DNA of 64,000 nt, taken from Pocillopora damicornis (Eukaryota). The stretch covers positions 62,001 to 126,000 of the forward strand of contig NW_020845515.1 in the NCBI RefSeq assembly GCF_003704095.1, given 5' to 3'. This document shows, in pieces, positions 36,657 through 64,000 of this stretch (position 1 is its first letter; the number at the start of each line of letters is the position of its first letter). The position numbers were made by a program, and so were the translations under genes. A model generated the notes under the pieces. It searched no databases, was not told where the DNA came from, and worked only from the letters and a program-made list of their open reading frames with translations.

Positions 36657-39600
36657 TTACCAATTAAACGTCACTGCAGGGCGGAAAAAAGTCATAATCG
36701 AAGCTTTTATCCACTCGGGCCTTTTCACAACCAGTAGATTTTCATCTCTTCATTAAGAAGTAAATCACTGTAGACCATAGGCGACAAAGTCAAAATGAAT
36801 GGGGTCTATCTATATATACGTCTCGAGAAAAAAAAAGATTTCGTAAACTGGAGATTTCAAAAAGACTTACCATCACTAAACAAGTCTCTTGAGTCATAGG
36901 TCAGCGCTCCACTTGAAAGAAAGCATGTGCCATCCTCATTTTCATACGCTTGAATGCCATTTGACATTAAATAGCTCTCTCTGGAGACGGAAAGCAAATG
37001 GTTCTTCAGTGCTGCTTTCATGCCTCAATTTTTAACAACAGCAGCGATTTATGCAGTAAAACCATTGGTCTTAGATGAAAATAAAAGATGAATACGAACC
37101 TTTCTGTGTTACCTAAAAATCTGATCGAGTCCCTGAATCCTTTAGCAAACGGGTTACTGTAAATCTTGAGTCTCGTTATCTGCGAAATTAATGAATCTTT
37201 TTAATCAAAGGTCGCAACCTATCGTGAACTCAATATTCCTTCATGCGTTAAAACGCGCTCTGAATGATTGTACCAAGTTATCCGGACTACTCCTTTCTTT
37301 AGGCTTCAGGCAGAACACCTTCGACATTTATTGCTGATTCTAACAGTACGCAGAACGCTTGCCCCGTTTAATTTAAGCATAGCATAAACTCACAAACAGC
37401 TTCTCTCTTCTCTGAGTTAGTATACCATACGACAAAAAATTCTGGACCAAAAGACTCCCTTTTAATTTGTCTTAGAGACATAACAATTATTTCACACCAT
37501 TTTTACTCGACTACCGAGCTTGCAATTTACCATCTTTCTTAATATAACATAGTTTTAAACGCCACTTACGAGGTGATTCTGATACGAAGTGACCGCCATG
37601 AATGTCGTTTCTGGAAACACGAAGGTCTGCGCTTCCGTCAAGTCTGTTTTGTGAACATTTTCACTTGCAGGATCCTTGACCAAGTGAATTCGTGGTTGAT
37701 ATTTGTGCATGGAGTTTAAAATGATCTAAAAGTAAAAAGACAACGCATCAGTGAAAACACACATTTTGTCCAACTTGCGAGCCTTTACAAAGCTCCTAAA
37801 AGCTGAACAAGTTCAGTCATAAAGCCACGCTTTGCTATCACAAACGCCTTAGTTCGAACTCTATAGAGGTAAATTACATTTCTGAAAAACAGCATAAGGT
37901 TGTGCAGTTTATGTGAACAAAATACGCCCTTATATGCGAAGTTTTCATACGAATTTCGTTCACTATCATTTCCAAATTGCGGGGGTTTTTAAATTTCGCC
38001 AGCAAACATCATCGTTCTTTGTGGTAAAGAAGAACTTCTTTTTCTGTTGTCTTTCTGTTTTTGAAGCTGCTTACATGGAACACACATGGAAATCATTTCC
38101 ACCTTAATTAATTCTTTACATATATATTTTGGCGAAAATGCTGCATCGCCTAGCTTCTGATAGCCACTATCCAAAGCGGGAAAACGATTCACTCCAATTA
38201 TTACATTCTAAAATCTATATTGCTTGCGTACCCATGAAGCACTAAATTTAATGGTTGAGAACTTAAAAACTGCAGTCCTTTCATGAATGAAGTCAGTTTT
38301 TGAAAGTTTGTATCTCTTTCTTCAATTATAAATAAGAAATATCTATTTCTAGAGCAGGTTGGGGGAATGAAGTTGATTTTGTATCGTGTTTCACCAGTTG
38401 CGGTTTTCTTCCTGTCACTCAAAAAATTGTCGCCAAAAGAAGACAGAATATAGAGTAAGTTTCCCATGAGGATTTATTTTATGGCCGCGAAACATCACCT
38501 CACGCAAAGTTCGAGAACTTTCCAAAGCAGCTGAATTTTTTGTTTAAAGCGTTCATCATAGGGAACTTGAGACTTGTTTGTGGTTCCTTGAGTACCTTAG
38601 GAGTATGTGGAAAAGGTTTTCAGTTTATAACGCAGAAGAACAGCGTAAAAATTGAAATCCCGCTCAACCGCCAAAGTCTTAGCAGAGCAATTTGAACTTT
38701 TCATTTTTCGGAAAGAGGCAAACTTATTACTCATCCGTGCTTTAAAATTTATGTAGAGGGGCAGAGATGTCTATAAAAGCCGGCATTTCAAGAGGCCTTT
38801 GCTAACAAAGAAAGCTGAAGCAAAATTAATAAATCATTGAAAGACGCTGTGATGCAAGATTCAAAGAACGTCGCACTGAAAGAGAACATATCTGCTTGAA
38901 AGAGAAGATATCTGCTAAAAAGAGAGTTTCCTGTTCTTCTATTTTGGTCTTGAATAAAATTGGGTTCAATTGAAATTTAAAGGGACGTGACGATTTCGCT
39001 AACAGGTGGAATTGTTTTGTTCAGTTTTGTATTGAAGCGCTACAAAGGCGGACTGTTCTACGGTATCACAGCTAGCTAATGGCATGTCATAAGTAACTAA
39101 AACATCAGATCAATTTACAGTCACAACGAACAACGGCAAGCGTAAACATGGCACAGAACCGAAACCAGATTGTGAGTAGTTGTGACGGGAGAGAAAAAGT
39201 CTTTAAGCATGGGGTAAGAAATTTCGGAAATGGTGGAAATTCCATCAAAAGAATCGTACATTATAAGCGCGTAAAAAAATTTTCCCTTCAGCGTGCAAAA
39301 TGGCGCAAATTGTTCTCAATTTAAGATTCGCGAGGATATTTTATGCGCCAAATTTACATGATTGTCGTTATAGATGGCTACATATTTCTCTCTTAATCAT
39401 TCATGTCTGAGAAAAAAGACAGTAAACCCGTGGCAACTTCTGATCGACAGTCAAGTTGAAAATGATAAACGAAGGGTATGAAGTGTTAAGAATGTGTTAA
39501 AAACCTGGAGGCCGTTTGCGCAAAAACAACTAGTCATGAAATAGGATTGATCTTAGTGAGACGGCTTTAAAGAAGCAAAACGCAGACAAGACACCTGTAA

Positions 39601-42600: not shown

Positions 42601-43361
42601 AAAAACAACACCACAAAGAATAGGAAAACCGTCTGTGCTACTGAACAGAGCGGCAAACCACAAAGGGCATAACCACAGTAACAATTCGTTGTTTGAAAAC
42701 ATGCTGTTAAAGAGTTTTAACGGATAAACCGCACAGAGGCCATTTTCCTGTCACACCGGTCAATTTGCGATATCTGGGATATCAGTAACATCTTGAGTCG
42801 GCCTATGGACGGGAAAACTGCTCGTTGGCTAACAAGACTAAACAACAACTTAAAAAAGAGCGAAGTAAAATGAAGGGTTTGAAAACCTTTCAAAATCTGT
42901 GAACTAATTTAAGGAAAACTGTGAAATATTTCATCGTATTCCTCTGATCTGTGGTAAGTAATTATCTTATCGCACGGACGTGCAATAAGCAAACTTGAAC
43001 TGACCTTCCTGTCTTCGTGATTATCATTTCTGTACCTAGCCGATAGAAGCAGTTCCAAAGTTCCTTGCCTTCCAGTATGGCATTTGGTTTTAAAGTTTTA
43101 AGCTTCTTTCGTGGGACCGGTGAGTAGTGTTTTTCTCTTTCAGATAGCAGACTTTTCTCATCAGGCCTTGTCTCAAGTTCTTCTAAGAAACGCAAAATAT
43201 ATAAGCCGACTCAAAACGATTAAATCCTTAATACCTGTAGTCACTCTAGCGAAAGACACCTCTGATAACTTACCTTCATGGACGAGGGACGCGATCGAAA
43301 ACGCTCTGGCATTGTTCGACAAGTTGCCTGCTCTCTGGCTGCTGGAATGTTTTAGCGACAT
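36657..43361 (-). CDS. TBX20: T-box transcription factor, Tbx20 subfamily
   Basis: Exons 43274-43361, 43005-43182, 40001-40274, 37570-37725, 37100-37179, 36871-36980, plus an uncertain short last exon (~36657-36673 or ~36742-36767). eh1 motif ARAFSIASLV. T-box [81 protein letters not shown]..ERES. The HPDSPFTG and RDS..ERES motifs are Tbx20-type. Confidence 0.9.
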
Positions 43362-46300
43362 TTTGCCGGCCGAATGTTCACGAGACAAGCGTAATGTTGT
43401 ATACTTGTTTGAACCACGCATGCATAAGCTTATCAAGAACGTTGAGGCAATAAGTGAATTTTAGCTTCAGCAAACAATCAATTAAAACCTTTTAACACTG
43501 CGCCATGTCGTCGCCGACGACTAGCGAACTGTCCGATTGGTTCCACGTGACCGTGACACAGCGCAAATATTGTCAGGCGTCAATCATATTAGAAGCACGG
43601 GATTGAATAAAGTTCTGCGCCGTGTAATGCACGAAAGTTTGCGCTGGAAAGCGCTGTTCTGTTTGCAAAACTTTGTAACCAATATCTGACTCTTTCCAAT
43701 CAATCGCAAGGAAATTTTCGTAGCCAAGCCGACTTAAGTCACCGCATTTCCCTAGAGTTCTTCACGCTCAATTATCACTTAGAAATTCTCCAATAAACTT
43801 GCTTGCACTTTTAAAAGTTTTTCACTTGTTCTTCGTTCAGAGTGACAGCTTTTCATGTTTTTTTCACATACCGTGCGCATTTGAAAATTAATTGAAAACA
43901 AAGGAGGTGACCGAAAAAATAATCTGAATGCAGGAAGAGGTTTATTCTGAAAAATTTGTCATGCCACTTGCTCTTTTGTGAGGAAGTGAGAAATGCTTGC
44001 AGTGATGATATCACTCAGGTGCAGAAAACAGCGAGTGAGACAATTCCGTTTCAGCCAAGAAAAATTTATCGCTCATTTCTTGGGGGAACTCTATCTACTC
44101 GCGTCAATTTTACATCTTTTCATCGGCAGTAAGTGAATGTCGAAGGACCTAAGGGAGTTCTTTTAGTGAACTTGGCTTTGACAGAAGTGCCTTAATGTTC
44201 AGAGATCGATGGCGCCAGTTGGTCAACTCCAATATTCGTCTTTCTACAATCAAATCATTGATGGTGATGAGATAATTAGTGTGATAAATGCGGCGGGTAC
44301 CACTACTGCGAACCGAGAAAACTTGGGATATCTTTTCGCTTCTCTCACTTAATCAATAAGTCTTTGATTTTGTAAAAAATGGAGAAAAACCGAAATAAAT
44401 CAGGGCATTCGTTGTTAAATTTGGAGTGAGAACGTGGAGCTTTCGTAAACCATTTGTGTGCACCAAGTGGTCCGAGTAAACCATTTAATTGCAAAACAAA
44501 CCCTTTCAAAGCATGATAAACCATTTCAAGACAGCAGGGGTCATCGATTACAGCTCAGCATGATCAGTAGGAAGCAATGTGTAGGAAAGTAACTAGACAC
44601 TTTAAAAGCGCAAGAACAAACTGATAACCGCCTAAAAATTTTGTGTCAGCATTGGATGCTAAACGTCGAGATGATCTAAGTGTTGCGCCGAAAACATTAA
44701 CAACTCATCCATCCCTCAGCTTAATTATCAATTGCTCCGTTGAAGCTTTTAGCGAAAAATCCGCGAGAAAAAAAGCCACAGGAATTCGGTACCATTCGCT
44801 TCTGATAAAACGCCTACTCTGTAATACTATCGAGCCATCAAAAAACACGACCCTCCCACTTGAACTGATCACAAAACCTCTCTCTTGAAAAGTTATCTAC
44901 TGTGCTCAAGTTATCGCGGTCATTATTTTATCACACCGAAAAACTAAAAACTGTAAAAGATTTGATTTCAATCAGATCTTTTGCAATATGTGTTTCACTC
45001 GAACTCTCAAGTCGTCTTTTACATTTCCTCTTAATTACCATTAATCGACATTTCCTGTAAAAACAATCTTGAGGATTTAGCGACAAAGAGGTATTTCCTG
45101 TTGTTTTGGTGGGTTGTTCTGTTTGTTGACGACAGCATTCTTTAAAAATGATTTGTGTTCTAATGACTACACATTTACGCCAACAAGCCCTTGGACTCCT
45201 CACGTAGCCATTCAAACATCTTCATGGGAAGTTTTCCCACGCCGTAATTAAAGAAAACAAAATTACAATTGATCACCTTGTGTGATGTTTACCGACACTG
45301 TTTGAGATAATTTTGTCATTGAACCTCAGCAACAACGCATAAGTGAGACATCGAGCATGTTTCATTCCTTTCGTTTTCAAGATCACATATCAATTCTCCT
45401 TACACTCTGCTATACATTTCTCTTTATTTTACCTCGAAGAATTTGGTGAAAAATCAAACAATGTCTACGTGGTGAAATTTTTCTTAGTTCTCGTCACCTT
45501 TCTGCAAGACGATGTATTGATAATTTAGGGAGAAATTACACATTGATCACCTATAGCTACAATAAAAAGTGATAATTGGGAAGAATCGGGCGTTAAACTG
45601 GCAGCGTCTCGACGAAGGAAATTTAACTTTTGATGAGCCTCGATGATGATGCAATCGAACAATGTAATTGGTAACGCCTAACGGCAGTCCACGTAGTTAG
45701 AAATGTCGTTGGCAGCTTCTGTGGGGCGAAAGAACTGCGGAATACGCCGGTGAAAATATTAGTGCTCGAGTTGTAACATGAATGAAGAATTCTGTAGGAT
45801 AATTGAACATCTCCTATCCCGTTTCGGCTCTAGCCCGGCGATTCTTGATCCGTTTTGACAAATTCGTTACGTTAACTGCAAACATCGAGAGAAATGGCCG
45901 AAGCTGGTTGGTGAAACAGTCACCTGGCTAGCAACAAAAAGCCAAAGGCATGAAATATCCATTTTTTTTAAGAGCATTTGACAAAGTGCTTCACGCTTTT
46001 GAAGAAGAGAGACTAGGAGCAACTAAGCGATGATGATGACTTTCACGAACGTGATCTCTCGAGATCACGAGTGCTGCGTTACGAGAATCCGTGAAAGAGT
46101 TAATGGCCTTATTTTGACATTCTTTTCAATCAGAAGCTTTAACAAACTCATTTCACAAGTTCACCCAAGAATCTTGTGACATTGGTCTGTCGTTTTAGCT
46201 GGCAACCATATGGGACACGCCATACAAGTGTTTTGCTGGAGAGAAGTGGTTTGAATAGGTAATGATCAACCATCTGAGACACAAGCACAATGAAACGCTA

Positions 46301-48922
46301 AAAGACGCGAGTTGAAGAAAAATTATTTCGCTGCGTTTCCTCTGATCACCGTTTCTGGAGTGATAGAGACTGGCTTAGAAAACAAACAGCAAACAGACGC
46401 ATCCGTTCTAAAATCAGTCGATTCAATCTTTTTACAGTATGAATTTTTAGCGCAAACCTCAGTTCGCGTAACAATTTCAAATTCCAAGTTATGATACACG
46501 ATGTCTCTCCACTTAAGTTATAAACACAACAACTTTCTTTTTCATTTTATTTTCAGTCCAGTTTGTTATTTATAACAAACCGCTGCTTAAAAGATTTGGC
46601 TTAACAATGGATCGCGTGCAGATTAGTATCGCGCGCAATTTACAACATAATTAAAATTGAATGAGCGATGACAAGCAACAAAAAATACAAAAGAATTTTT
46701 CATCCTCAGAAAAAAAAAAAAAGAAAAAAGAAAAGATAGTAAAGACAAAGAGCCAAGACCTTAGATTAAAAAAATAAATCATGCAAGCTCTGTTCGAGAT
46801 TAGATCAACCTTTAAATTACTAAAGAACGAAAATGTTCTATAGAAAAATCAACTTATCTGGAGTAGTAAATGTCGCCTTACATGTGACGGGCAATACAAC
46901 TAATGGCAATAACTCAACTACACTCCCGAAATTTTATCCCAACAAACTTTAACTACAACTGTATATACTTGAAGTCAAACTCAAAGCAAGAAAAAGGTGA
47001 CACTTTTAAGGATCCTGATTATCATTACAACACATATCAGAATAATGAATGTTCACAGAAAACGTGTGGCGGGGTTCATCAAAAAGACCAAAGAGGATCT
47101 CCTTCATCGTCGCCTTCAAGTCTAACAGAGACAATGGCCATTAAGTCCATAAAATATGAAAATAAAAGCTACTGACTGTCACCTTGGTAGGAATCTACGT
47201 AACGAGTAAAATCATTGAGTTTAAAGGCGCACGGTCGCTAAAAAAAATCTGTTATCGACTCCTGAATATTTACAGTTTTAAGTTACATCGCACTATAGTC
47301 ACGGTTTTTTTGCCATCAAACCTTCACTTATGACAGTGGGCTAAAAGTGTTGAGTTCGCCCATTTGTGGAGTGGAAGAAATTTAGGTAAGAAGGAAAAGT
47401 CATTTTCAAATTCGCATGGAGATACTTCAAAAATTATTTTGACAAAGTAGGTTTTTTTCCCCTCTAAGTTTAGCGGAGTTTCAAAGCCCTGACCGTCTCC
47501 AGCAAGCTGGGATTTTTTATAAACTACAGTGTTGTTTTTATTCAGCGCGAAATTTGGGAACAAACCTGGATGCTTATCCGTAATTGATAAAAAATTTACC
47601 ACGGGTAAAACGTACGCTTATGGAAAATAGGGGTGGATAATGCCTAGTAATACGACTCATTCAAGATCTTCCTGTTTACGTTTGGTGTGGATCTCTGCTA
47701 CTTTAGCGCACATTAACCCATACAAATGGTCCTTGTGAAGTTTTCCGTATTGGCTAATCTTATTCTCACGGTAAAGTTATCCTTGCATAAAATACCGTGT
47801 TTATAAATGAAACATAAGTGTTAAAAACTTGTCCAAGAATGAATAATTCTGCGATTGAATGACATAATGAGATGGAACAAAGTGAACGAAAACATACTTC
47901 GAATATTTAATTACCTAGCGAAGTTTGTCGTCAATAGTTGTCATTGTTTATTTCGCTACAATGAAAACATTTTTTCATGTCTTTAAAAAGAAAAAAAGAT
48001 AGACACCTTAAAAAACAGTGTTATCGCGTGGGAAAATGTTCCTCTGTTGAAAGCGGAACTGCGACCCAAAAATAGCTCTTACTTCATTAAAATCTTTCCG
48101 CCTTTACTAATTTCGAGGAAAGCCGCCACATCGGTCCCCCATTTCGTTAGACAATGAGGTTAAAAGTCTGCGCATGAGTAAACGTTAAGGAAGTCCAGGC
48201 TATGAGACCCAAGTTGCCTTGCACGAGTTACAGACACGGTCACGGTGTTTTAAAATATAAAGCTCAAAATTAAATGTTAAATCAACAGCGAGCGAAATCA
48301 AACAAGCTTTGCGTTCAAGTCTCAAGTTTTCCTTTTTCGATTGTTTTCGTTCAAAGCTATCTATGAACGTTTAAATTTGTTACGCGTATTTTCCGTGAAA
48401 GCTGCTGCTTCTTATGATTCCATTTATTATTTTGCGCGGGAAATTGGCGCACGGCCGGCAAAAAAATTGATCCCCTTACGCGTGCCCGGCATAGCAAGGC
48501 GAGTGAATACGACATGTTAAGAAGGAAAGCATTTCGCTTTTCTTGTCTCTTGCTGTATATTGCTTGCTCACCGTTTCAATCGTCCTCACTATGAACCTAA
48601 TACAGGTGCAATGCACTTAAATTCTCAGACGCAAAATACAAGTTTCCTCCAAGGGTGTCAGACAAACTTGGCCCTCTCTCTCTCTCCCTCCCAATCTTCC
48701 CACCAAATGAGTCCAATTTGGGTTTTAAACCATTTTGAGGTGGAACAAAAGAAAGTATTATTCGACCAGTTACTTGTTGGCAACGACATGAGCTTATGAG
48801 AACATCAAACATTCAACGCATGATTTTTTTCTTTCAGAATTTTTTATTGGCGAGTGGAGCGTTTCGGCGAGAGAAAAGATTTCCATTATTCATTGTATGG
48901 ATATAAAAACTACATATAAGCT

Positions 48923-51900
48923 TTAGCTACTATTATCAGAAAATAATTTTCTCATTTGAACACAAAAGTGATACAGAGGAAATCCCATGACATTGAAGTA
49001 GTCGCCATGTATAGACTTGACCAGTGTGCCACCAATTCCCTGAATACCATATTTAACTGATGTTAAGGAAAACAGTGAGATTTTCAAAGCACATGCACCG
49101 AGCAATTTTCGACAGTGTCGAAAGCATCCCAGTATAGCTTTGGTTTTTACTTCAATACGCTTTGTGATTGGTCAAGAAAAAACTCTCACCAACCTCTGTA
49201 AAAACTAAAGCCAATCGTAACTTAGTCACTCGCGCTTTCCCGTGCTGAAGGAATCTTGCCTGTTTTAACATTTATTTCTTATTGGCCGCGAAAATCAATG
49301 AAGAAAATAGTACAAATAAAACACGGAAAGTTTCAAATTTACTCTGATAGAAGAAAAATGGAGTGGCCTTAGTCCCAGAGGCAGGGCTTCTGGGTTGCAA
49401 GACTCAGAGCCTCAGCGACTCAAACACCCAGCCTCCTATCTAACGAGCGGGGAAAGAAAAAGAAAGAAAACGGCCCGTTCTAGCCCTTAGTTTTGGTGCA
49501 ACGCCAATCTTCTTCACTGGCTCGCCAACAAAACAAGGACTGCTATATAAACAGTCCTATATAAACAGTCTGAGAGCACATGCGCAAGGATCTGTGCCCT
49601 GTTATTATTATTACAGTATATTCAAGGATATGATCCGGCCTTGTCCCTGAGAAGAAAAAAAAACCTTTGTGGAAACTTTCAAAGCTGAAGACGGACCGAG
49701 ACCGAGGCATTGCCTCGCTGCAGGTTCACCCCCAACTTATTTTACTACACATGATGGCAAGTTCGCCTGAAAAAATCTGTTGCCTCGTTTCCTTATGGCA
49801 AAACAGTTTCTTTATCACCAAATTAGCAAGCATTTGATGCAGGTGAAAAATTTACACATACATGAATACATACAGTTAAATCTAAAAATTAAAACAAAAA
49901 ACAAAAAAAAAACAGACAAATTCACCAAGAACTCACATTGGCTCTCCAGTTGCAATATATGCCTGGATCACTTCATCTGTTAATGTTCCAAATGACACCA
50001 ATGTCTCCTCATAAAACTGGGTTATGCAGGGTTCTTTAAGCCAATAAAAGACAAGAAGTTAATTTTCTCATAAGGTACTAATCTGCTCAACTATCTTAAG
50101 ATTAAATTCATCTATCAACAACTTCCTGAAAATCACTCCAAGAGGAGAAATTTAGTTAATTAGTTTAATTCTATATTCAATATTATGTTAATGAATTTAC
50201 TTCCGATCAGTCTATGATTATGAAAAGAGGATTAAAATTTGATGCAGTTTAGCAAGTTTAATTTTGACTGTTTCAGGAAGTTTTTGCATTTTGATTTCCA
50301 TTTGAAGAATACCCCACACTCCACATGGACCTCACTGATCCTCAGGAATGGTGCAAGACAACTAAAATGGAGAATTTGGTCTTGGATCTGGTTAACCCTT
50401 TAACTCCCAAGATCTCATTTGTATTTCTCCTTACTGTCAGCCATACAATTCATATGATGTAAGTTTGGAGAATTTGGAATTGGATCAACTAATAATCCCC
50501 TAATTGATATTTTTCTCTATTCTCTTTACTTGTCTGCTTGATATTGTACTTATAGCATAAGGAGAAATTCTGTCTTGGTCACTAGTGGGACTTATAGGGT
50601 TAAACTCCTTCTACGTTCAAATTTTTTATTTTTTTTGCCATTATGTAAGGGCCTTTTCCTCTTTTAAAAACATTTTTGTTGGGAAGCGAGCCCCAAGATT
50701 TTGAGTCAAAAGCCGCAAAGGGGAAATGAACAATTTTGGATAGCCTTACCCATGAAACAACTATCACAGTGCCACACTACTATAGTGATATATTTCACAG
50801 ATAATTGTATAAATACCTTTGGCACCCTCTCTTTGTAAAAGAGTAACCCCACTGAATACTGCATGATCCTTACCACTCAAACTGAAAAAATATGCCCATA
50901 CAGTTGTTATGAAAATACCACCACAAGATCAGAAAAATCAAGTTGGATCAGTAGATGCACCTACACATGTCTTTGAGTGCTTATTATGTTAAATGTAAAC
51001 ACAAATGTTAAGTATTCTTCATGCTTATTTCACATAAACATTTGACATGTACGCCAAATTTTCCATGTGGAGGAGAAGTGGAAAGTTTTTTAAAAGTCTG
51101 ACACACATTGATTTTATTTGATTTTCAAACAGCTCTACATTTACACAGAGAAATAAAAAGATTTGCAGCTTAAGACTAATGCACATCCATTTAAACCCAG
51201 ACCTCCTGTGGGGCACCTCAGACAAGAAAATAATCATGAACTTATTCACCTTTTTAACATTGAATATGCATTTTCCTTGTCTTTTGGTTTTTCAAGAATA
51301 ACTTCATCTAAGACCTGCCAATGCAAAAAAGTTATTGATGCAATTATGGTTTTCAAGAAAAAGAAGACTATGGGATGTACCTAATGTGCTGATGGAAGAG
51401 TAACTAAAAACCATCATTCCTTCCTGATGCAGATTTTTCTGCAAATAGTCCTTCAAGAAAAATTGACATAAATGTAAGCTCTACTTACAACAACCGTATC
51501 AGATCCAATGATCAAGGTGAGTTTATCACTCTGGAAAGTAAGCAAATCTTAATTAACCCTTTGACAAGCATTAAGTTTCTCCGTAAAATGTCGCCCCAAA
51601 ATCACTGCTTAAAGTCAAGAGTATAAAGAAAATGATCACCAACTAGTGAAGCTCTTGATTGTGAAGCAAATTCTCCTTTCCAGTACATTAGGAAATATAT
51701 ATAGAGCAGTAAGGAGAATATGCATACTGACATTAGGGTGTAAAGGGTTAAGGGATAGCCAAGAGCAACTCTAGTTTCCTGGGCACCTCTGATTTATTTT
51801 TTATCTCGAAAAACACACAAATCACACAGGAGTCAATTTTTTTATCAACAGAGCAGTTTTACTGAAAATGAAACTCGCTACTGCAAATGAATTGAATAAC

Positions 51901-52414
51901 AAGCATTTCTTAGTAACTTTATAGTGTTACTTTTTTTATCCCCAGCTAAATTGCATGGGAAGGGTCTGGTAAAAATCACTAAAATCAATGATTAAGAAAT
52001 TAATTAAAAGATTGACCTTATTATGGATCGACATAGGATATCTTAAAAGTTCTTCTCCAGTGACCTCCAGTAGAGCCAAAATATTACATTTAAGGCACTT
52101 ACCTTATTGACTCGCCCAGCCACCTCTAGTGCTTTTTGTCTCGAATTCTCCAAGACATATTCAAAAGGATACTTAAAAGCGGTTTTGTCAAGTGTTTCTT
52201 CAAATCTGGATGGAACAACTTCAAACTTCAAGCCCTGAATTTCGAATAGGAAAATCTATGAGGAATTTATCGCTCACTACAACAAAAATATATCTAAACC
52301 TTGCAAGAATACTCAAAATTTTACAATTTTTCGCAGGATCTCGCATCTCCTCGGTGAACTACTCGCTAGAATGACTCTTTGCGCGGATAAAACCTCTAAA
52401 AGTGGCTCCAACAT
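48923..52414 (-). CDS. Maf-family nucleoside triphosphate (dTTP/UTP) pyrophosphatase; homolog of the ASMTL N-terminal domain, no methyltransferase domain
   Basis: Exons 52325-52414, 52103-52234, 51489-51530, 51250-51314, 50817-50881, 49937-50033, 49632-49646, 48923-49052. Motifs: [61 protein letters not shown]. Confidence 0.92.
49053..49631 (-). other. U12-type (minor spliceosome) intron with AT-AA termini
   Basis: 5' end ATATCCTTG at 49631. Branch site TTCCTTAAC at 49062-49070, followed by 9 nt to the junction. Removing this intron restores DKAGS|YGIQG. Confidence 0.85.
50396..50599. mobile_element. TTAA-flanked piggyBac-type MITE
   Basis: TTAA|CCCTTTAACTCCC...GGGACTTATAGGG|TTAA. Near-identical to 3462-3664. 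Confidence 0.8.
51557..51747. mobile_element. TTAA-flanked piggyBac-type MITE (different subfamily)
   Basis: TTAA|CCCTTTGAC...GTAAAGGG|TTAA. The 3' half matches 1427-1510. Confidence 0.75.
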
Positions 52415-53548
52415 ACTGGCGATGAAAATTACCAGGCGCGCTCGAGAACAACAGAAAAGCTTGGCTACTAAGTTTGGCGGGAAGTAGTTGTTACTGGAGT
52501 CCAGTCTACTAATAAAGTGGTGATGGAAAATAAAATTAATATTTTTGTCTTTAATTCATTATATCATCTGATATTCTATCATGTCAAGAAGATTTATTTG
52601 AAATGATTTATTTTTACCCTTCCGTTCCAAAGAATGAGAGCAAGTCTAATGAATGTAAGCTACGGTTTGTCCATGCTGGTGTCCCCAATATGTCTGTCAC
52701 GCAAAAACCGCATTGGACTTTGGCCAAACTTTGTGCTAAACGAAGCTATAGAGTAAAACGACATTAATCTTTTTTCTGATCTATATTTATTCCCTGCCCA
52801 CTCAAAAATCTGACAAATGCGAGTCATGTGAGCTGGGTGAGAAATTCTTTTAACTTCTTCAAACGACTAGAATTTGGTTACAGAAACGAATATAAAAAAA
52901 TATTTCATGTAACCATTTCAGCTAAAAGGTTTTTTTTTTGCGACGAAATCAACCCCAACAAACCTCAAACATAGTTTTTTTTAATGATAGTGCGGGTAAT
53001 AATAATTAGAAAAGATCTTGACGCTAATTCATTATAGTTCAAATTCAAATCTGAACTTAAGTATGGGAGTTTTTTCAAGGGTGTTCTCCTGTTTGTATTT
53101 AACTTGACTTCCAATACCTTCATTTTGGCTCCTTTTTTCCGTTTCTCAGCGTCCAGTAATTATTCACCTTGACTTTAAATTCTGGATCCCAGCCATGTTC
53201 CGTAATTGACTTATAAATAACTTTGAGTTTATCCCCAAACCGGAAACCATAACTGTTTCCGGTATTATTTCGAGAGTGATTGACATGTATCAAAGCGCAG
53301 TTGTGAGAATTCGTTTCGCTGTATATCATGGGATTGCGCCGACAAGCACCTACGGGTCATTGATGAAATGAAAACATTGTGAATTGTTTTGAAGAATCTT
53401 AATATTGCCGTAGTGTTATGTTTATGGTGAAAAAAGAAACCTTCAAGAAGATATTCTGCACAGAGTTTAGCAAAATGTCGTTGTGCTGTGATTTTTCACG
53501 AGAATACAAAGGAAAATTAGAATCGGTCATTAATGACATTAAAAATGG

Positions 53549-53980
53549 AGGTGTGATTTGACGTTTTCCACGCATAACTCTATTGTGCCCTAATGTAGTT
53601 TTCGTGAAAAGTTGCCTAATCCTCACCAAAGAAAACCTCTGAGGCGGCGTATTTTAATGTAAGTTTTCTAGATATTACATGCAAAATTAGCTTGGTGTAG
53701 TTTTGTTTGACATCGCTCGACATTGATTACGGGGCGTTACGATTTATCAGTAGACAAGCAAGTAAACACGTCAATTAATGTTCATGTGTTTATTTGGAAA
53801 AAACGAATAACACTTGAGATGTTCGTATTTACTTGAACTTAAGTCAAAATGTTATGGAAATTTCTCAGTTAACAGGTGTGATCCCTATTAAGTTTTTTCA
53901 AACAGACCGTGGTTATCTGTAATTCCACGTTTTTAAAGCTCTGTAATTGGATGATAAGTGTTAGGTAATGCGTTGATAAA
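53549..53980 (+). promoter_or_regulatory. Putative Hand proximal enhancer/promoter with T-box, GATA and Fox motifs
   Basis: AGGTGTGA at 53549-53556 and 53874-53881. WGATAA at 53744-53749(-), 53913-53918(-), 53952-53957 and 53974-53979. Forkhead-like GTAAACA at 53762-53768 and TGTTTAT at ~53787. Confidence 0.45.
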
Positions 53981-54137
53981 CTTCCGTCATCTAGTTTGAG
54001 ACGCAGTTGGGTTGCGTTTCGCAGCTGCGAAATCCGTAGCTATTTGTTCACTGTGGAAGAGGTTTCAAAGTCCTCGCGAAGTATCTATTGATTGCAGAAC
54101 CGTTCCTTACCAGAAGAGCTATCATTTTCATCGTAAA

Positions 54138-54686
54138 ATGGAGCAACCCTTGAAAGAAGAGAAGTCAAAGAGCGAGTCGTGTGATCAACCGAGTTCGTCA
54201 GCTCCCGACACAGGCAGCTCTGAGTTTCCTCGCGGCTCCGCAAATCGTAAAGAAAGAAAACGCACTCTTACAATGAACACAGCATTTGCTGAGCTTCGGG
54301 ATCATATCCCAAACGTCCCCCCAGACACGAAGCTTTCGAAAATCAAAACACTCAGGCTTGCCATTAGCTACATCAAGTTTCTGATGGAAATTCTCGAGGA
54401 GAGCAATGAAGGGAAGACGAGCCGAAGTCATCGCAACTTTGTAGCGGATTTATCGTTTCAAAATGAGGGCCGAGAGAAGAGAAAAAGAGAAAATAATGTA
54501 AGTAAAATTATCTTTGTTTGGTAACTAACATTTGCGTAGCCTACGATATGCAGTTCCCTTCGCATGTTGTTGCTTTATTCGATGTTCTTTATTCAACAGC
54601 TTGCCAGCCAAAATGATTCTACTCAGAGAAAGAGAGGTCGAACGGGATGGCCGCAGTATGTATGGGCAATGGAGCTGAGGAACTAA
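54138..54686 (+). CDS. HAND: Heart- and neural crest derivatives-expressed (Hand) bHLH transcription factor
   Basis: Exon 54138-54497 has the b[53 protein letters not shown]. Exon 54600-54686 has the diagnostic Hand C-terminal motif [19 protein letters not shown] intron. Confidence 0.95.
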
Positions 54687-57600
54687 GATGCTCTGCCACT
54701 CCGAACCTGCTTAATTCCTAATACCTCCGGGCGCAAAATGCGGACGTGAGTCCCAGGAAAGAGAAACAGATTTTTAAACGTTGACGGTATGGGTCGCACT
54801 TGCGAAATCACGACTCACACGTTCTCTTGGATCAGCCACAATTGAATGCATCACATCTATTTCCGAACCTTCGCCTGTTGTCTGCGGGACGCTATCATGA
54901 GACACTTCATCTTATTGTTCTACCGTAATTTCGTCGTTTCAATTTTACAAGTTAGATGTTGGCTCTTAAATTCACTGATCTAGCGAACATTGCTTTATTA
55001 CGACGTGTACATGCAAAGCAACATACGAAGCGTCCAAATAAAGGTGTGAGGGGAGATGGCTAAATCTTCAATGGTTGAACAATTAAATTCGCAATATAGT
55101 TTTAATCGATCGGTGAGTGAAATTTTAAGCTTTTTTGACGGAGATGGCGAAGGCGCTAGATGCGCATGGGAACACTCGAGAGTATAGTGTAAATAATAAA
55201 CATTTATGGGATTAGTTTGTTATTGCGGATAGTTTTGTTTTGCAGCAAAGATAATCAACAGCTATGGCACTTGAGCATCGTGAGCGACCAATGTGAAATA
55301 ATATCTCGCTTATTCTTTAAAACGTGAATCATTTCTCAGCAAAATTTCACCTATAATATAGAGACAACCTCTATTTTTTAAACGTACTTGATGACCCTTG
55401 TAAAAAACGTTGCTACATAGACCTATTATCATAATTCAACAGAGCTCTTGTGTAGTTTATATTTAACATAGATGAAAATCTTTGGTTGATTTTTAAACAC
55501 TTAAAGTAGTTTGTTAACTTCAAGGTACATCAGTGAGTAAGTGGGTGGAACGAAAACACTTTAAGCTTATTTATTGTTATTTTACTCGAAGTTGTGAATA
55601 TTTATAAAATTACTTACTGTTTTTACTCGAAGCGCGTCACAGAAATTTCTCGTTAAATAGCTATCAAAATGTAATATACAATTAAACAGAAAATTGCCCT
55701 CATAAACAATAGACTTTGAAGGTTTGTCATATACTAACTTACATATTATAGAAAGCTGAGGTTTTGGCGCTAAAATTCACGATACATGGCTCTTAATTTA
55801 CGTCACATATGCTTCTTCAATCTTCGTAACTTACAAGAACACGTTTTTCTCTCGCACGTCGGCGTTTGAACCTAAATCCAAGAAGTATTAAGAAATTTTG
55901 CGGTTTGTGGTTGAAAATGAGCCGGATTTCATATTTAGAACATGGTTTTAGCTGCCTCGCCCGTGCTCTAGAAATCTCAACTGATATGCAAGAGGGTTAA
56001 AGCCGAGAAATGACGGTCTTTTCTCTTTTCTCCCGCTGCTGAAGGCAAAAGAGTCAGTATGTGAAACGAACCAGCCGCCTAGTTAAAGCAGCGCTGTAGA
56101 ATATTCTAGAGGCAAACAGGACATGAGCGCCAAAGGAAAACTACGTGCGGCCAAAACGTAATGCGCAGAGGAATTTTAAAAAAACGTTTCATTCATAAAA
56201 GAGTAATCAAGAGTAGGCTTTTGCTGCAAAGCGGAGGAATTTTTGACAAAACATTTCACTCGTTAAAGGGCGATCAAGAGAGAGAGACAGCTTTTGCTGT
56301 AAAGGATTAAATCTCTATCGAATCCTATAAAAACGTAACCGTCTTTTCAAAAATCTTTTTTTGCAAATTTTTACATCGCTCTAACTATTTCACAAGACAC
56401 CGACTCGGAAAATTCGATCAAGTGTATCACCTGAACTTGGTTCGCTGGTATGAGTTAATGAAACCTAATCAGAACGCCGATTACATCAAGGAACTCGAAA
56501 AAACATGAGTGGATGTATTCACGACACTGCACTGGATAATTTTGTTACCCGTGCACTTAAGTTCGTTTGCCTGCTAAAGACAAGTTCTTCCTGCGACTGA
56601 AATGACCGCATTATACGTTAGTCAAGGTAAAGAAAACCGTTAATAGACCAGTCAATTTGAAATCGATCTACAGTCTTCGATCCAGATTATTTCTTAGTAC
56701 TTACGAGCACTCGCGTTTTTTGAATACATTCATGAAAATGTTCCTCGGACAAAAATAAAAATGAGTTGTATTTCTGTAAAATTTACAAAACTGAACTAAC
56801 TCGAGACCACTGCGAACACGTTTTTCTTTTCTCCCTTCTCATTTCGGGAAAAGTAGTTCTATGGAGTTTGCTTTCCACGATTTCGTGAGATTTCTTCACG
56901 AACCAGGATCAGTGTACCTCAGTAACTTATTTCTAACTATAAACAGAAATAATTTCAAATTTACCAAGTCACCAATCAGTTAGGAATTGATGATCACTTC
57001 CATGTCGCAAACTAATAGGTATATTAATTTCTTTTTCTTTTTTGAATGATTCTTTTAACTTCGTGGTAAACGGTCATTCATGAACTGAACAAGACTACAC
57101 TGTAGAATACCGTAAGACGTCCTCCAAAAATGGTGACGTCTCTTGAAGTAATAAGGATCAGAAGCGAACAAAGTCTAAGTCGGTTTTTGAAATATTCTCT
57201 TACATTAATTGGCCTTTTTTTATAACTAACTAAAATTTCCCGTTCACACATTGCTTGTTTGTTTAATTGAATTACTTTCTAAGAAAATCAAGAGGAATTT
57301 CCAGAATTTCCGATCTCTCACATTGCGAGTGAATTTACTGAGTAAAGGAACAATACTTTCCTCAAACTCCCTATTTCAAGGATAATAGATGTGTCAGGAG
57401 TGTGATGAATAATAAGTACAATGAATCTTCGACATAACTGATGTAACAAATAAGAAAAAGGCATTTAACGCAAGTTTTTGTTTTTTCGAGAGATTCGTAG
57501 AAGTCACGACAAAAAACCCTGCCAAAAGTTGCCTCCTCACCATGAAGCTCATCAGAAGTGGAAGGTCTTGCTCTTCCGCGGAGGGTTTCGACCTTGCTTT

Positions 57601-60600
57601 ATTCAATTATGTCTAAAGTACGCATTAATAATTTATTTTGTGGCTTACTTTGTCTTTCAAGAGCCCTTTCAATAGATTCCTTAATCTGAGTAACGGGATA
57701 TCTGCTTCCCTTAAAGAAGAAAGGTCTCTTTCTCAGAAATTCACGTGTTTCTTATGAGGTCTGTTTCCCCTTGAGATTTAAGTAAACTCTCGTGAGAAAT
57801 TTTCCTCAGTGTTTTGCTGACAGTTTTATCCGTTTATTAAAAGTAAACATTGGGGGGAAAACTTGAAATTCAGACAACTTCGTAGAAAAATAAGATCTCT
57901 TGGAATAACAAATAGACAGGTTTTTGTCCATGAACGTAGATATTTTCAAGTGAATATGCGATTTGTTCATGACAAACAGATCTTCTGTACAAAAATATTC
58001 CAAATATAGGTTTTTTTTCAAGTTTCAACCAGAAATTTAAACGTGCAGTTGTTTTGATTGAAGTTCAACCAGTTGTAGTAATTTGTAGCTGCAATTCAGT
58101 CCGCGTAAAATAACCACGAAGGGAAGTGTTTACTTTTATTTTTTCATCCTTCCGCTGAGTGATTCCGAAAGAACTGCACTTAAATACGAAAAGGAAACAC
58201 TACTTAATCAAACTAAGGCTTTATTCATTAAGAAATTACTTGAGAATGCTTTTCGTGATGAGGACTTTTTTCTGTGAGTGGTGAAAACACTATGATGAAA
58301 GTTTTAAAACGTTTAAACTAATCAATTGTTTCTCAGATCGATGACAAGTTATAGTAAAACTTACTAAAGTAAAATTTCCTTGTATAAACTCCTGGAACCC
58401 AGCGAAACTGTTTCAGAAACAAGTTACATGGCGAACTTTCTGTTAGAACACACACGCCCGAGGAACAGATTAGCCATTTTGAAATGTCTCCAGGGCAAAT
58501 CTTATCGGTTTGATGAAATTGTAGGACCGCACAGCGTAAATGTTTCATTAGTTTTCGTTGATTAGATTTTCTCACTCACTTCAATGTGCCTTATAGTTTA
58601 TTCAATATCATCAATAGCTTCTACAAACCATCATTTAAAACACATCAGTAAACATATGTTTGTGATTATTTACGCCCACGAAGTACTTCAAGAATGCTTA
58701 TTATTTGATAAAAATGACAAAAAACTTCGGTTTAGGAGTAAATGAATTTTTAGATAACAAATTATCAGGTTGATAAAGTTAGACCTTTGCCTTCTGTTAT
58801 CTCTTTTCACTTTGCACTCAGTGGCAGTCTTAGACTATCTCCTCGTCTTCTTGAAAATACTTAAAACGACTTAAAACGTCTAATCTGTCGAAAGGTCAAA
58901 CATTAAGAATGGCACGTTATAATCACTTTAACAGCTCCACAAAAGACCGTTCTTAGCTCTAAGCTTAAGAGTCTTCAGACTGGTGTTCATTACAGCTCCC
59001 ACTTAAGGTTCATAATTCTTGGAGTTGCTCTACATCTGTGGCTATTTAGTGGAGCGCTGGAAAGAAAGTAAACATTTAAATTACTTTTTAATTATTCCCT
59101 GAACAAATTAAACCTATTTGTCAACTGAAACTGTTAACAAACTATCGTTCTAGCAACATCATTAAACTGTTCTAACTTTAGTGGCGCAGATCAGGCTAGT
59201 TTGTAAATTCAATTTTGTCCTGTCGCATTCATGCTACGTGTGACTTCGTTTGGCACGACGAAGAGTGTTGTAATCGCACTTAGAGCTTTATCTGCGAAGA
59301 TAACACCTAACAATGACATAGTCTACGCGCAGAATGATATATTCGTTTTCGAAAGCCTCAAATGGATTAGTATTAGCTCTCTGGGATTTAAAACTACAAC
59401 AGAAACTTACCGTTAAGGTGTAAATTCCGGAAATGACAACGAAAAAAACCTTTCCAGGTTATGCCGTAAAGATGCACTCGAACTGCCTGCTATGTACACT
59501 AGAATTTCACTGTTGATTATTTTGTGTAAAAGCCATCTTTCAGTGAGATAAGGAGCTTTATGTCAAGTATTTAAGATGGGGGAAAGCCAGGGTGATACAC
59601 TAACTTGAACTCTCCACAAAATCAAACTCACGACAAAGAGCAAAAGCGGCGAAATAACACCCCAAAATTGTCTTACAACCTTTCAACTGTGTAATCTCGA
59701 TAATGGATTGTTTAAATTTAACACCCAAGACATGTAGAGCAGTTCTGTTTTGCTTTTTTATGTCGCGTGAGTTTCCTATCAGACGGAAACTGTTGGCCCT
59801 AATCCCATTATAACCGTCTACCTCTCGAACGATAAAAACTAGAAATCGCGATTTATTCGCGATATGCGTAAAAGCTACACAGCTGAAAATATTTTGACTA
59901 TTTTCAGAAGCAGTTCAAGTCTTTCTTATACCTCTTAGTTATCCCCTTTTCGTGTTGGGAGAGAAGATTAATAGGAAATATATCATTCCCCGCGATGAAT
60001 GCAAAGTAATCTTGCATGACTAAAATTTAGGCACTATCAGAAACATTCAAAATATTTACTTGAACACGATATGCCGAGTGAAGGTAAAATGAAGGCGTAT
60101 TACTGAGAATTTGGGGTTTACAAAACGCCATAAAAACCTTATTTTTTTCGTTTTTCAAATAATTAAGAATTCCTTTCTATCAAGAGGATCAATAAAACGT
60201 AGAGATGATGTCATCTACCCCAGTCAGACAATGTCATGGCAACCCAAGGATTTTTGTTCCTAAGCATTGAAAAGAAGGAAGATCCTGTAATAGAGAACAT
60301 CAGTCCAACTGTACTTGAGAACCAAAAAGCCGACGGTACAATCCTATCATTTGCTGAAATGCTTTGCATAAATAATGTGTTAACCTATTGCTCAGTTCTT
60401 GAACCATGATTGGCTCCGTGGCGAAACTGAATTCTAAATTGATTGAAACGATGGCTGTTGTTCCGTTGCCATGCTGTCAATGCTCTGTAGTAAATGCAAT
60501 AAGTATTTTAAAAAGTTTGCCATTGCCTTATCATACGAGTTACATCGTATATCGAAAAAACGCTGTTGACTTTTTTTTAGAGATATTCTACTTGGCTGAG

Positions 60601-63600
60601 GTCCAAAGCACCCATGTATGAACCAAATCCGTTGAATATTCCTAAATAGCTCTCAAAGTTTTAAAAGTGACGAACTCGTTTGAAGTTTTTAGACACGAGT
60701 GAAATAGTAAAATTTTCCGCGTATTAACCTGAGTATTGCTTAGTAAAGACGCTCGCTCGAGTTATTCGTAGTTTCAAACCCAAGCCGTCTAGACAAAAAA
60801 TGAGATGTCTTCGTAGCCACTGTACCGTGCGTTTTCCAAGATATCTAAGTTGCAGTTTCAGTAAAGAAGATTGTATTTTGACGATAACCAAACAATTCTA
60901 TCGGTTACTGATCAATCAGGATGTTAAGCGTGTAATTCAATGTAATCAAATAAATAAAACTGAATGTAAAAAAAAAAAGAAACCAGAGTTGTACCTTAAG
61001 TCTGTTCACAGAATTAATTTTAGTATGAGACTACTTGCCTGAATAGCTCTAAATTCAACCAACAAACGTCCCACAGTTGGCTAAAATTATACGGAATTTT
61101 AACGACTCTGTCGCTATTTCTCACGCCGTAATTTTAGCTAAGGGCACGTCTAGTCATGGTAAAACGGAACCTAAAGATATGTGAATTTGGGATTTAAGTC
61201 TAAAGCGACATATTCGACGCCCTCATAAGCCGACTGAGTTGTCTGCATGGAGACTGACGAAGACACGATACTCTGCCATTTCAAACGGCTCTTAAGAACA
61301 TTTTGAGCTTACAATTAACTGAGTTTGGTAAACAAAACACATTGTTCCTTTCCTGCGAGAATTTCCAAGAAATATTAGAATTGGTATTTTCAGTTAAACC
61401 TCGAGCGAGAGGATTGCAATTCTCGCTAAACTGCCTAGAAAATTAGATTTGGAAGACACTTTTGGCAGGTCAAAGAGTCACAACCGGCTTTTGAAAAGTA
61501 AGTTGTGTTGAAATACTGTGGCGCGAAACAATAACGTTTTCTTTGCAGGGAAGGCTGATTAGCTGGTCGGTTACAATGTGAAGCGAGGACTAAGAACTCT
61601 CCAATCAGACGGTTACTTTCCTTGTTTGATTTTCAAGCAGAATTCAGGATCAATTCTGCTCATATGCCTTCAGTCCTAGTAATGCTATTCTGACCTCCAA
61701 ACTTGGCTTTCATCGCACTGTGTAAGTAGGATAATTACCATGTTTACCAGAGGGATTTTATCGTTATTGATATATGGATAGTTAGCGTAAGGAAGCTCAC
61801 ATAGGCGATTTGTTTTCCCCTGTTCGGATGGAGGAGAATGACACTATCAAATACGACGAAACTTTACTAAGCAGTAGATAATAGAAATGCTTTTTTTTCA
61901 TTTGCGGTACTGACCATTCTTAATTAGCAGTTTGTTTTCTCCAATATACGTTTCAGAATAAGGCAAATTAAATATACCGCAGCGCCAATACCGTCTGAAT
62001 GGGACTATTAACAGACTCTTACACAACAAAATTATCAAAACCTTGTGATTGTATTTTCATGAAGTTATATAGAAAGCGTACATGGCTTGATTTCATACCT
62101 TCGCTTAGAAATCGTTGTTAGTAACAATACTGCAACAATACTGTATGTTCTTTAATAAACTACTACATTAGGTAGTTTAGCTTACAGCGTTTGCGCCGTG
62201 ACTGATAATTTTGGTGCCATATTACATTTAAAAAACCAACTACGACTGCACTGGTTACTTCAACAAATGCCTTCCCATTTGGTTTTGAATCAGATAAGAT
62301 ATCTTACGCGTGTTTTTATTTCTTGTGATATTACTTAATATTGTTGATAGTCAATGATAAATTGAAGGAAAGTACGACTACATGGTTCGTAAGAAACCGT
62401 CATGGACTCGAAAATCTCTGCGGCAGGATTTCTTTTTTCCCATCAAAACGTTTGCATATGGGAATACAAAGACTGTCTCCAATTGCCGATGTTCATAAGA
62501 TTAAGTCTTCGATGCAGAGACAGACATTTAAAGCAAAATTGGTCACATACGTGATTCTTAAAAATCTAACCCTCAGGGCACACGGAAGATTTAGCGCGAA
62601 GAGATAAGTTACCTGTCACTTAAAACCCACTGTTATGTGAGTTGTGGGTTTTCTAGGGGAAACGTAAGTTCTCAACTGTTGACACGTTTATTACTCATGG
62701 CTAAAAATGTCTTTGATAGGTTAAAAGCTCTAATTTTCGCTGATTCATACGTGCAGCACACGTTGTGGGTGAACCCGTAGGTGTGTGTGTGTGTGAGGTA
62801 AAGGTGTTTCATGCCCCAGGCTTTGACCTTCCGTTAAATAGAACGGAATTAGTATAATTAAAAAAAGCTGTAGAACCCTAAACTGACTGTGGTTTTAGAG
62901 AGAGAAGGGCACGTCGGTTTGAAAGGCCTAGACGAACGAAAACTGCTTAACTTGGAAAATTTAAGATTCAGTTTGTTGGTTTAATTCTGGTATCTTTGAC
63001 TCAAAGGGTAAACTAAGATCTTTGACGTGATGGCACGGAAGGTCAAAAAGGTATCACAGTTTTTCTAAATACAGAGTCATTTGAAATTTTGGTAATTCAT
63101 ACTGATTCGACATGCGACTGGAACTGAATCCCATTGTACGCCTATTTAAGACAAAGGTTCCCTTCTTTACATCAGACAAATTAGTTTGAAGATTAATTCA
63201 GAGAACTATTCAGACTTATTAAGACTCTCTAGATGCTAAAAGATCAATAATTCATTTTAAGAATGCGAGTAAAGTACTTTTTGCCTTCTGCATCATATGA
63301 TTAGGTGTAGGTCAAACCACAAAGCTGAGAGACGAAAAGGTATCTTTTTGTGTGTTCAAGTTAACCTAAAATGAACTAGACTGTGCATAGCTGTAGGCTG
63401 CAGCTTTTTCTTTTCGCAAGATTAGTTTATTGAGTTAAATTTCTAAGTAATTTCTATCACAGCCTTAATGACTGAAACACCTCATAAGAGGTTTCAAAGG
63501 ATATTTCAAAACCAATTTATTCCCACGACTTAGCTACGGTGCAATTACATAATCAAGTGAAGGTCAAAGATTTCCCACATTGTTAAATCAATTAGTTATG

Positions 63601-64000
63601 CAAATCTCACGATGATGGAAAAGCTGAATTAATTTGGACGTTAATGTCAAACTGAAATGTTTCAACCAGCCTCGCGCTGAAAGACAAAAATACAACTGTC
63701 CAGTTTTCTGAACACGAAAATGACACTTACTTGATATATTTCTTACGGCTACACGAAGCGTTGATTGGCAAAGATCCGGCTTCAGGGAATTAAAAAATAT
63801 GCCCTTTGAGAAGTACAGAGGCCTGAAATAATAATGTTTTGACCTATCACTTGGGATATCTCTAATTCTCGGTTGTGGTTGACCGGTTATTTTTTCAAGC
63901 TGGAATTAAAAGCCTCCTCAATCGGATCCTCCTCATATTTTGAATACTCAGGTGTACATTGTATTCTTCGAGTATGGGAAAGCCGGAAAAGAGTCATCTT

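Follow-up and report, generated by a model that had tools for sequence, protein, structure and literature searches.

Two regulators of the bilaterian cardiac network, Tbx20 and Hand, appeared to lie side by side in the genome of the coral Pocillopora damicornis, which raises the question of what holds such a pair together in an animal without a heart. The window analysed here is a stretch of 64,000 nucleotides (contig NW_020845515.1, positions 62,001 to 126,000 of the forward strand; positions below are those of the window), and its initial annotation had proposed a genomic regulatory block with a Maf pyrophosphatase gene as bystander, preserving a co-regulated module older than the bilaterians. 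Our preferred reading, to which we give a probability of roughly 60%, is that Tbx20.3, Hand1 and Hand2 form an inherited hexacoral microsynteny in which each gene is probably under its own nearby enhancers and not under shared long-range control.

Gene content of the window

A T-box gene of the Tbx20.3 type occupies positions 43361-35911 of the minus strand and encodes 362 aa in 7 exons (43361-43274, 43182-43005, 40274-40001, 37725-37570, 37179-37100, 36980-36871 and 36113-35911), as given by the exon model, RNA contigs and the Pfam T-box domain. Its start codon at 43361 is conserved (an in-frame ATG at 43421 is used in named records). Hand1 is located on the plus strand (54138..54686; 148 aa; exons 54138-54497 and 54600-54686), was identified by RNA contigs and Pfam, and is the orthologue of Nematostella Hand1; it has the Hand-type bHLH domain and the C-terminal GRTGWPQ box. 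The two start codons are 10,777 bp apart, and one intact gene, encoding a Maf-family nucleotide pyrophosphatase, lies between them on the minus strand (48923..52414; 211 aa in 8 exons, from the exon model and Pfam). Exon models and RNA bear out the divergent arrangement that had been described for the locus, with only Maf in between: all 6 Tbx20.3 introns and the Hand1 intron were joined in 4 of 4 RNA runs. RNA contigs near Hand1 begin at 53827 (two runs) and 54064 (one run). The large introns ascribed to the T-box gene were found in two cases (2,730 and 2,275 bp), but the other four introns measure only 91-757 bp. Its end had been placed at 36657; the coding sequence in fact stops at 35911, and an end near 36660 was ruled out by the last exon beginning at 36113, which is joined in RNA contigs.

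The gap between Tbx20.3 and Maf (43362..48919) spans 5.6 kb, with a CpG observed/expected ratio (CpG o/e) of 1.11 and mostly single-copy DNA contig depth, and the stretch 54687..64000, initially regarded as a plain non-coding flank, is actually the Hand1 3' UTR and the spacer up to the Hand2 orthologue. The description of both flanks (43.4-48.9 kb and 54.7-64 kb) as repeat-poor holds in that neither contains a tandem array and DNA contig depth is near single-copy, but there are modest rises at 45.2-45.9 kb and 47.9-49.9 kb. Independent DNA contigs bridge 51707-62879 and 43201-48400, so the gene order is no assembly artefact over those spans. Rfam gave no matches in 34800-64000. Unspliced RNA contigs were present at 45.7-47.5 kb, which could be pre-mRNA, read-through or DNA.

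A second Hand gene, Hand2, starts about 1 kb beyond the window edge (ATG at C2150:126994) on the same strand as Hand1, the two being told apart by their match to sequences in a Nematostella supplement. Further along contig C2150 follow CEP135, a gene with an F-box and a Sec7 domain, and soluble guanylate cyclases. From this domain pair we take the F-box gene to be FBXO8; it lies about 27 kb past the Hand2 start with CEP135 as the sole gene between.

Identity of the T-box gene

The T-box search of the Pocillopora genome gave 34 matches in 12 loci. A tandem Tbx20 pair on contig C351 has T-domains 70-79% identical to four bilaterian Tbx20s, and the T-domain of the window gene is 65-66% identical to the same four. 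The window gene was placed within Tbx20, apart from Tbx1/10, Tbx15/18/22, Tbx2/3 and Tbx4/5, with a support of 98 in IQ-TREE (23 rows) and of 0.97 (47 rows) and 0.99 (184 rows) in FastTree; three divergent Pocillopora T-box rows were omitted from the 23-row and 184-row trees. It pairs on a long branch with the Nematostella protein that is encoded beside Hand (support 100, 1.0 and 1.0), and the C351 pair groups with Nematostella XP_032233341. The window gene is the orthologue of Nematostella Tbx20.3 and not of NvTbx20.1/.2. What had been taken for the canonical, muscle-acting Tbx20 is instead the divergent Tbx20.3, which keeps the T-domain core, and the canonical copies are those on C351.

Tbx20.3 stands apart from Tbx20.1/.2 in the tree and leans towards protostome sequences. 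A tree with all cnidarian Tbx20 copies forced together was rejected at the borderline of significance (AU p 0.044, KH/SH p 0.053, with a warning of too few replicates). We read this position as probable long-branch attraction; Tbx20.3 could also be an older paralogue, derived from an older duplication. No further Tbx20.3 orthologues were found among 144 new cluster representatives (4 of which were dropped from the tree for gaps), and the closest branches among them, nematode ones and a single jellyfish sequence, are weakly supported. In the preferred reading, Tbx20.3 would be a rapidly evolving duplicate that gained its place next to Hand once the bilaterian lineage had separated.

Linkage in anthozoans and bilaterians

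Linkage was assessed by the presence of records on the same contig and by accession order, or by NV2 numbers in Nematostella, proxies that give no strand; records of P. damicornis were left out. In all 8 named anthozoans, Tbx20.3 and Hand1 lie on one contig, at most 6 accessions apart in six of the eight (Oculina 3, Desmophyllum 2, Acropora digitifera 1, A. cervicornis 6, A. palmata 5-6, Nematostella 2; P. verrucosa 31, A. muricata 717). Stylophora, Orbicella, A. millepora, Actinia, Exaiptasia and Actinostola, with Hand1 records and no Tbx20.3 record, stand outside this count. The Nematostella tables give NVE24169 as Tbx20.3, NVE24170 as Hand2, NVE24171 as Hand1, and NVE4362/4363 as Tbx20.1/.2; in the chromosome-level numbering, Tbx20.3 (NV2.2671) and Hand2 (2672) are followed by one unnamed model and Hand1 (2675), and all three Tbx20 copies and Hand appear on one chromosome. 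The linkage therefore extends beyond the Pocillopora lineage, being common to robust corals, complex corals and Nematostella, and predates the coral-anemone split. It is not described in the literature searched, with subscription papers out of reach, and the available passages of the Nematostella table papers and of PMC3310212, PMC13539428, PMC12360431 and PMC10849676 hold nothing on it; apparently it has gone unremarked before.

According to the available part of PMC6214176, gene order is widely kept among corals and coral-anemone synteny is limited, homeobox clusters being the exception. Linkage within corals is therefore expected and Nematostella is the informative case, in which the retention of a trio of regulators suggests constraint. 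The trio outlived a local rearrangement that altered both flanks. Of the eight steps from gene to neighbouring gene between a testin-like gene and the guanylate cyclases in the coral (not counting astacins), six are broken in Nematostella and two are kept, namely Hand1-Hand2 and FBXO8-guanylate cyclase (Nematostella matches by gene name and NV2 number). Tbx20.3-Hand and Maf-CEP135 each lie within 7 NV2 numbers there. Since non-regulator pairs (FBXO8-cyclase, Maf-CEP135) are kept too, the retention of short blocks is not special to regulators, and two-gene microsyntenies are equally common in cnidarians and other clades in the portion of PMC10719294 available. The present coral order could have arisen by a single inversion of Hand2-Hand1-Maf, which would have placed Maf between Tbx20.3 and Hand1; a starting order of Tbx20.3, Hand2, Hand1, Maf and CEP135 would be sufficient and fits the Nematostella numbers. 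Under this model the divergent orientation of Tbx20.3 and Hand is likely derived.

The idea of a pre-bilaterian Tbx20-Hand module found no support in the comparison with bilaterians. Among the matches listed (the best 120 of 720, 120 of 191 and 120 of 266), none of the 12 bilaterian species with both names (two Asterias, Patiria, Centruroides, Haemaphysalis, Uloborus and six vertebrates) had Tbx20 and Hand on one contig, the sea stars being the cleanest cases and the vertebrate and arachnid ones being weakened by unseen paralogues. Cyprinus was dropped because its Tbx20 and Hand records look like different assemblies, and the survey yielded no Tbx20-Hand pair to compare for molluscs, annelids, placozoans, octocorals and medusozoans. 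The Branchiostoma floridae Tbx20 and Hand records are 760 accessions apart. The Tbx20.3-Hand trio was found in hexacorals only.

Conserved non-coding sequence around the Hand genes

In a scan of metagenome contigs, 80 of 126 loci were kept and 16 coral-like loci were compared at the DNA level; Tbx20.3, CEP135 and FBXO8 had no match among the 80 loci, most of which are too short to tell. Conserved cover against locus L068 amounts to 21.5% of the Maf-Hand1 gap and 25.7% of the Hand1 3' side, and against L067 to 24.3% of the gap and 9.5% of the Hand1-Hand2 spacer, with no matches in two reversed-sequence controls. Among the distant-species runs for conserved elements, X21 and X22 gave no useful cover and X13 and X14 were too close. 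It is at the two Hand genes that the conserved blocks are concentrated. Block 1 in the Maf-Hand1 gap (53172..53295) is 77-86% identical in other coral contigs, with invariant runs in a five-way alignment and two opposed CCGGAA motifs; block 2 (53496..53573) has a T-box-type half-site at 53549-53556; block 3 lies upstream of Hand1 (53719..53817, from the coral-contig comparison); and the proximal Hand1 block (53878..54029, plus strand) contains a 24-bp invariant run with a GATA-type motif. Blocks in the Hand1-Hand2 spacer are at 55894-55931, 58578-58722, 59501-59645, 59756-60073 and 63549-63688. Several of the blocks upstream of Hand1 are common to L076, the closest full-length named match of which is Acropora Hand. 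We suggest that the conserved blocks may be Hand enhancers.

The motif RGGTGTGA, which we take to be a T-box-type half-site, is present between -589 and -646 relative to the Hand ATG, both in the window and in all 5 other coral loci extending that far. The five-way alignment contains 15 invariant runs of at least 6 bases. GGTGTGA is invariant in 5 of 5 aligned sequences where 0.004 would be expected among invariant windows, although this core was chosen with the alignment already in view and is one of 10 motifs tried; the two invariant CCGGAA compare with 0.016 expected, and the invariant GATA-type site with 0.25 (not significant). CArG, MEF2 and full NKE motifs are absent from the invariant blocks. 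Three of the six AGGTGTGA sites of the window fall within 1.5 kb around Hand1, and neither of the other two near Hand1 recurs in other coral loci. As far as a sequence motif can tell, the conserved site suggests a T-box input to Hand1, the paralogue not being specified by the site; a T-box protein of whichever paralogue, acting in trans, could together with GATA drive Hand1 through the conserved sites.

It is possible, though we doubt it, that in hexacorals Tbx20.3 and both Hand genes are instead held together by shared enhancers or by a local feedback loop, with endodermal neural or muscle progenitors as the probable setting and Maf being irrelevant; in the feedback version, Tbx20.3 would bind the conserved T-box site that precedes Hand1. 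Such coupling would account for a trio that was kept between coral and Nematostella while its flanks changed, and the intact T-domain core of Tbx20.3, the invariant GGTGTGA (chosen post hoc) and the accumulation of sites around Hand1 are in keeping with it. However, the other two sites near Hand1 are not shared with other coral loci, a T-box site works with a diffusible protein so that linkage with Tbx20.3 is not needed, and non-regulator pairs have been retained equally.

The Maf gene as a proposed bystander

A genomic regulatory block comprises one or more developmental targets, an array of conserved non-coding elements, and a bystander gene with elements of the target in its introns. Such an array accompanies Hand1 and Hand2 among corals. 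CpG o/e is 0.17 in the Maf body (49937-52102) vs 0.94-1.11 around Tbx20.3 and Hand, i.e., a housekeeping-type gene next to CpG-rich targets; a low ratio is expected of a body-methylated housekeeping gene beside unmethylated regulators, and Maf would, by its CpG content, be a methylated housekeeping gene. The introns tell otherwise: comparison with L068 gave no conserved cover over Maf introns 1-5 (0 of 1,987 bp), and the scan thus bore out conserved blocks around the Hand genes but not within introns 1-5 of the bystander. Two other coral lineages (L067; L068/L070) also have Maf and Hand1 head-to-head, and this link, kept in coral contigs, is lost in Nematostella, where the Tbx20.3-Hand interval has no Maf and the Maf match, ASML-like-8 (NV2.3659; matched by name alone), lies about 985 numbers from Hand and 7 from CEP135. 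The bystander part of the initial annotation is largely refuted by these two findings. In anemones, no TADs were detected and enhancers stay near genes (PMC10719294, available part).

The Maf introns contain very high-copy repeats, as seen from DNA contig depth and RNA. Disruption of Maf by a repeat insertion was ruled out, the stretch being spliced out in RNA. Among the RNA matches listed, splicing of introns 3-5 and the 6/7 joint was seen, and introns 1-2 were not among them. A 15-nt microexon (49646-49632) precedes an intron of 579 bp (49053..49631, minus strand) with AT-AA ends, the 5' site and branch-point motif of which are presumably of the U12 type; the joined form was present in 2 of 4 RNA runs.

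Expression of the Nematostella orthologues

In the available parts of the published Nematostella work, hand2, tbx20.1 and tbx20.2 mark body-wall muscle (PMC10060217), knockdown of Tbx20.1/.2 disrupts this muscle (10.1101/2021.08.19.456976), and hand2 is among the early mesodermal genes (PMC12381260). Passages on tbx20.3 describe it as a marker of early tentacle-retractor states and inner-layer neurons (PMC10946136) and as enriched in Prdm14d neural cells, up 3.6 log2 (PMC10415408). For Hand2 the value is 0 in the mature tentacle retractor and close to 0 in neuroglandular cells (PMC10060217, the data available), and Hand1, Hand2 and Tbx20.1/.2 are absent from the accessible Prdm14d table of up- and down-regulated genes, which as an absence is weak evidence (PMC10415408). 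Tbx20.3 and Hand2 are reported in different cell populations in these sources, which do not support a co-regulated module of these two genes. The same pattern speaks against shared enhancers or feedback between Tbx20.3 and Hand, as Hand2 is in body-wall muscle with tbx20.1/.2 and Tbx20.3 in neural cells without Hand enrichment in the published excerpts.

We therefore regard as very improbable the complete model first proposed, in which a regulatory block with Maf as bystander preserves a pre-bilaterian, cardiac-type Tbx20-Hand module. Both genes do belong to cardiac-kernel families, hand2 and tbx20.1/.2 do share body-wall muscle in the Nematostella passages cited, Maf keeps its position next to Hand1 in other corals, all three Tbx20 copies of Nematostella seem to be on one chromosome with Hand, and Tbx20.3 may be an old paralogue; but Maf lacks conserved elements in introns 1-5 and lies outside the interval in Nematostella, the linked gene is the wrong paralogue for a muscle function, and none of the 12 bilaterians among the matches listed has the pair on one contig. 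"Tbx20 beside Hand" should not be taken as an ancestral heart module, because the linked copy is the divergent one.

Comparison with known systems

The closest counterpart of the locus is the Nematostella Tbx20.3/Hand2/Hand1 group, which consists of orthologues with consecutive published gene numbers; it differs in that Hand2 is the Hand gene next to Tbx20.3, with Maf absent from the interval; the tables give no strand. The Nematostella tandem pair Tbx20.1/.2 belongs to the same subfamily, but its coral counterparts are the C351 pair and not the window gene. Like genomic regulatory blocks, the locus has developmental regulators with a housekeeping neighbour, conserved non-coding blocks and long spacers poor in repeats; here, however, introns 1-5 of the bystander are without blocks, its linkage is no longer present in Nematostella, and the locus extends over tens of kb.

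In chordates, hand/HAND2 and FBXO8 form a microsynteny (PMC13756586; block 2111 of PMC8851819, as far as the sources are available), and the coral FBXO8 is two genes from Hand2, with the difference that CEP135 intervenes. Block 2111 is labelled "Vertebrata novel" among the supplement rows listed (PMC8851819); coral and amphioxus together suggest that the Hand-FBXO8 link is older, and this proximity would move the block back towards the cnidarian-bilaterian ancestor. The neighbour that is common to coral Hand and bilaterian hand is FBXO8, not Tbx20. One might go on to propose that Hand-FBXO8 is the ancient unit, constrained by a Hand-centred regulatory domain, and that Tbx20.3 is a later passenger: FBXO8 lies close behind Hand2 in the coral, an fbxo8-like gene is the neighbour of hand in amphioxus and fbxo8 has stayed near hand2 in gnathostomes (PMC13756586, available passages), and the conserved blocks gather at both Hand genes. 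We consider this improbable, as some 240 gene numbers separate FBX8 from Hand in Nematostella, where the link is thus dispensable. Also unlikely, if somewhat less so, is that the trio is a functionally coupled cluster kept since the coral-anemone split and wired through the Hand1 T-box site, which together with Hand-FBXO8 would be what remains of an ancestral eumetazoan Tbx20-Hand locus whose Tbx20 copy was lost in bilaterians.

Taken as an inherited microsynteny of separately controlled genes, the trio with its short conserved elements provides an entry to how Hand, a gene of the cardiac kernel, is activated in a heartless animal. Cnidarians have few conserved clusters in which developmental regulators of different families are combined. 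The homeobrain-rx-orthopedia cluster of cnidarians and protostomes (PMC2938728, available part) is, like the trio, a small conserved cluster of developmental regulators, but its members are of one gene class and it is also present in bilaterians, whereas the trio unites unrelated families and was found in hexacorals alone.

Genes flanking the Tbx20.3-Maf-Hand1 region

The left part of the window carries an Optineurin/NEMO-like coiled-coil gene with zinc fingers (about 860-8120, minus strand; the name is inferred), the body of which is CpG-depleted, and, at about 11900-34200, a cluster of tandemly arranged astacin genes that carry ShK-like domains. BMP1-like and ECT-like genes, putative counterparts of genes of this cluster, lie within 10 gene numbers of Tbx20.3 in Nematostella. 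Elsewhere in the coral assembly (G000), the canonical Tbx20 genes form a tandem pair (G000:C351:273500-286500; loci L062, L063), and contigs C809 and C464 likewise carry paired T-box genes.

In the minus-strand Maf gene, a 15-nt microexon and the U12-type intron next to it, whose AT-AA ends are atypical, together span 49053-49646; the intron was removed by splicing in two of the four RNA runs. Dispersed repeat fragments of very high copy number are found within the Maf introns (50392-50603 and 51609-51751), with further copies at 1428, 3458 and 22100. Unspliced RNA contigs of low depth were detected between the T-box gene and Maf (45710-47493); they could represent a non-coding transcript, read-through or DNA.

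Neighborhood of the Hand genes

Hand2, CEP135 and FBXO8 are consecutive just beyond the window (G000:C2150:126994-157745; loci L051-L054). In the Nematostella table (NV2.2421-3659), one run of gene numbers, a proxy for gene order, takes in Hand, GSX, LARP1, HMG2, SAP30L and FBX8, and one study names larp1, sap30l and fbxo8 among the vertebrate Hand neighbors (PMC13756586). The proximity of Hand and FBXO8 may predate bilaterians, because FBXO8 is also reported near Hand in amphioxus and vertebrates (PMC13756586; for vertebrates also PMC8851819).
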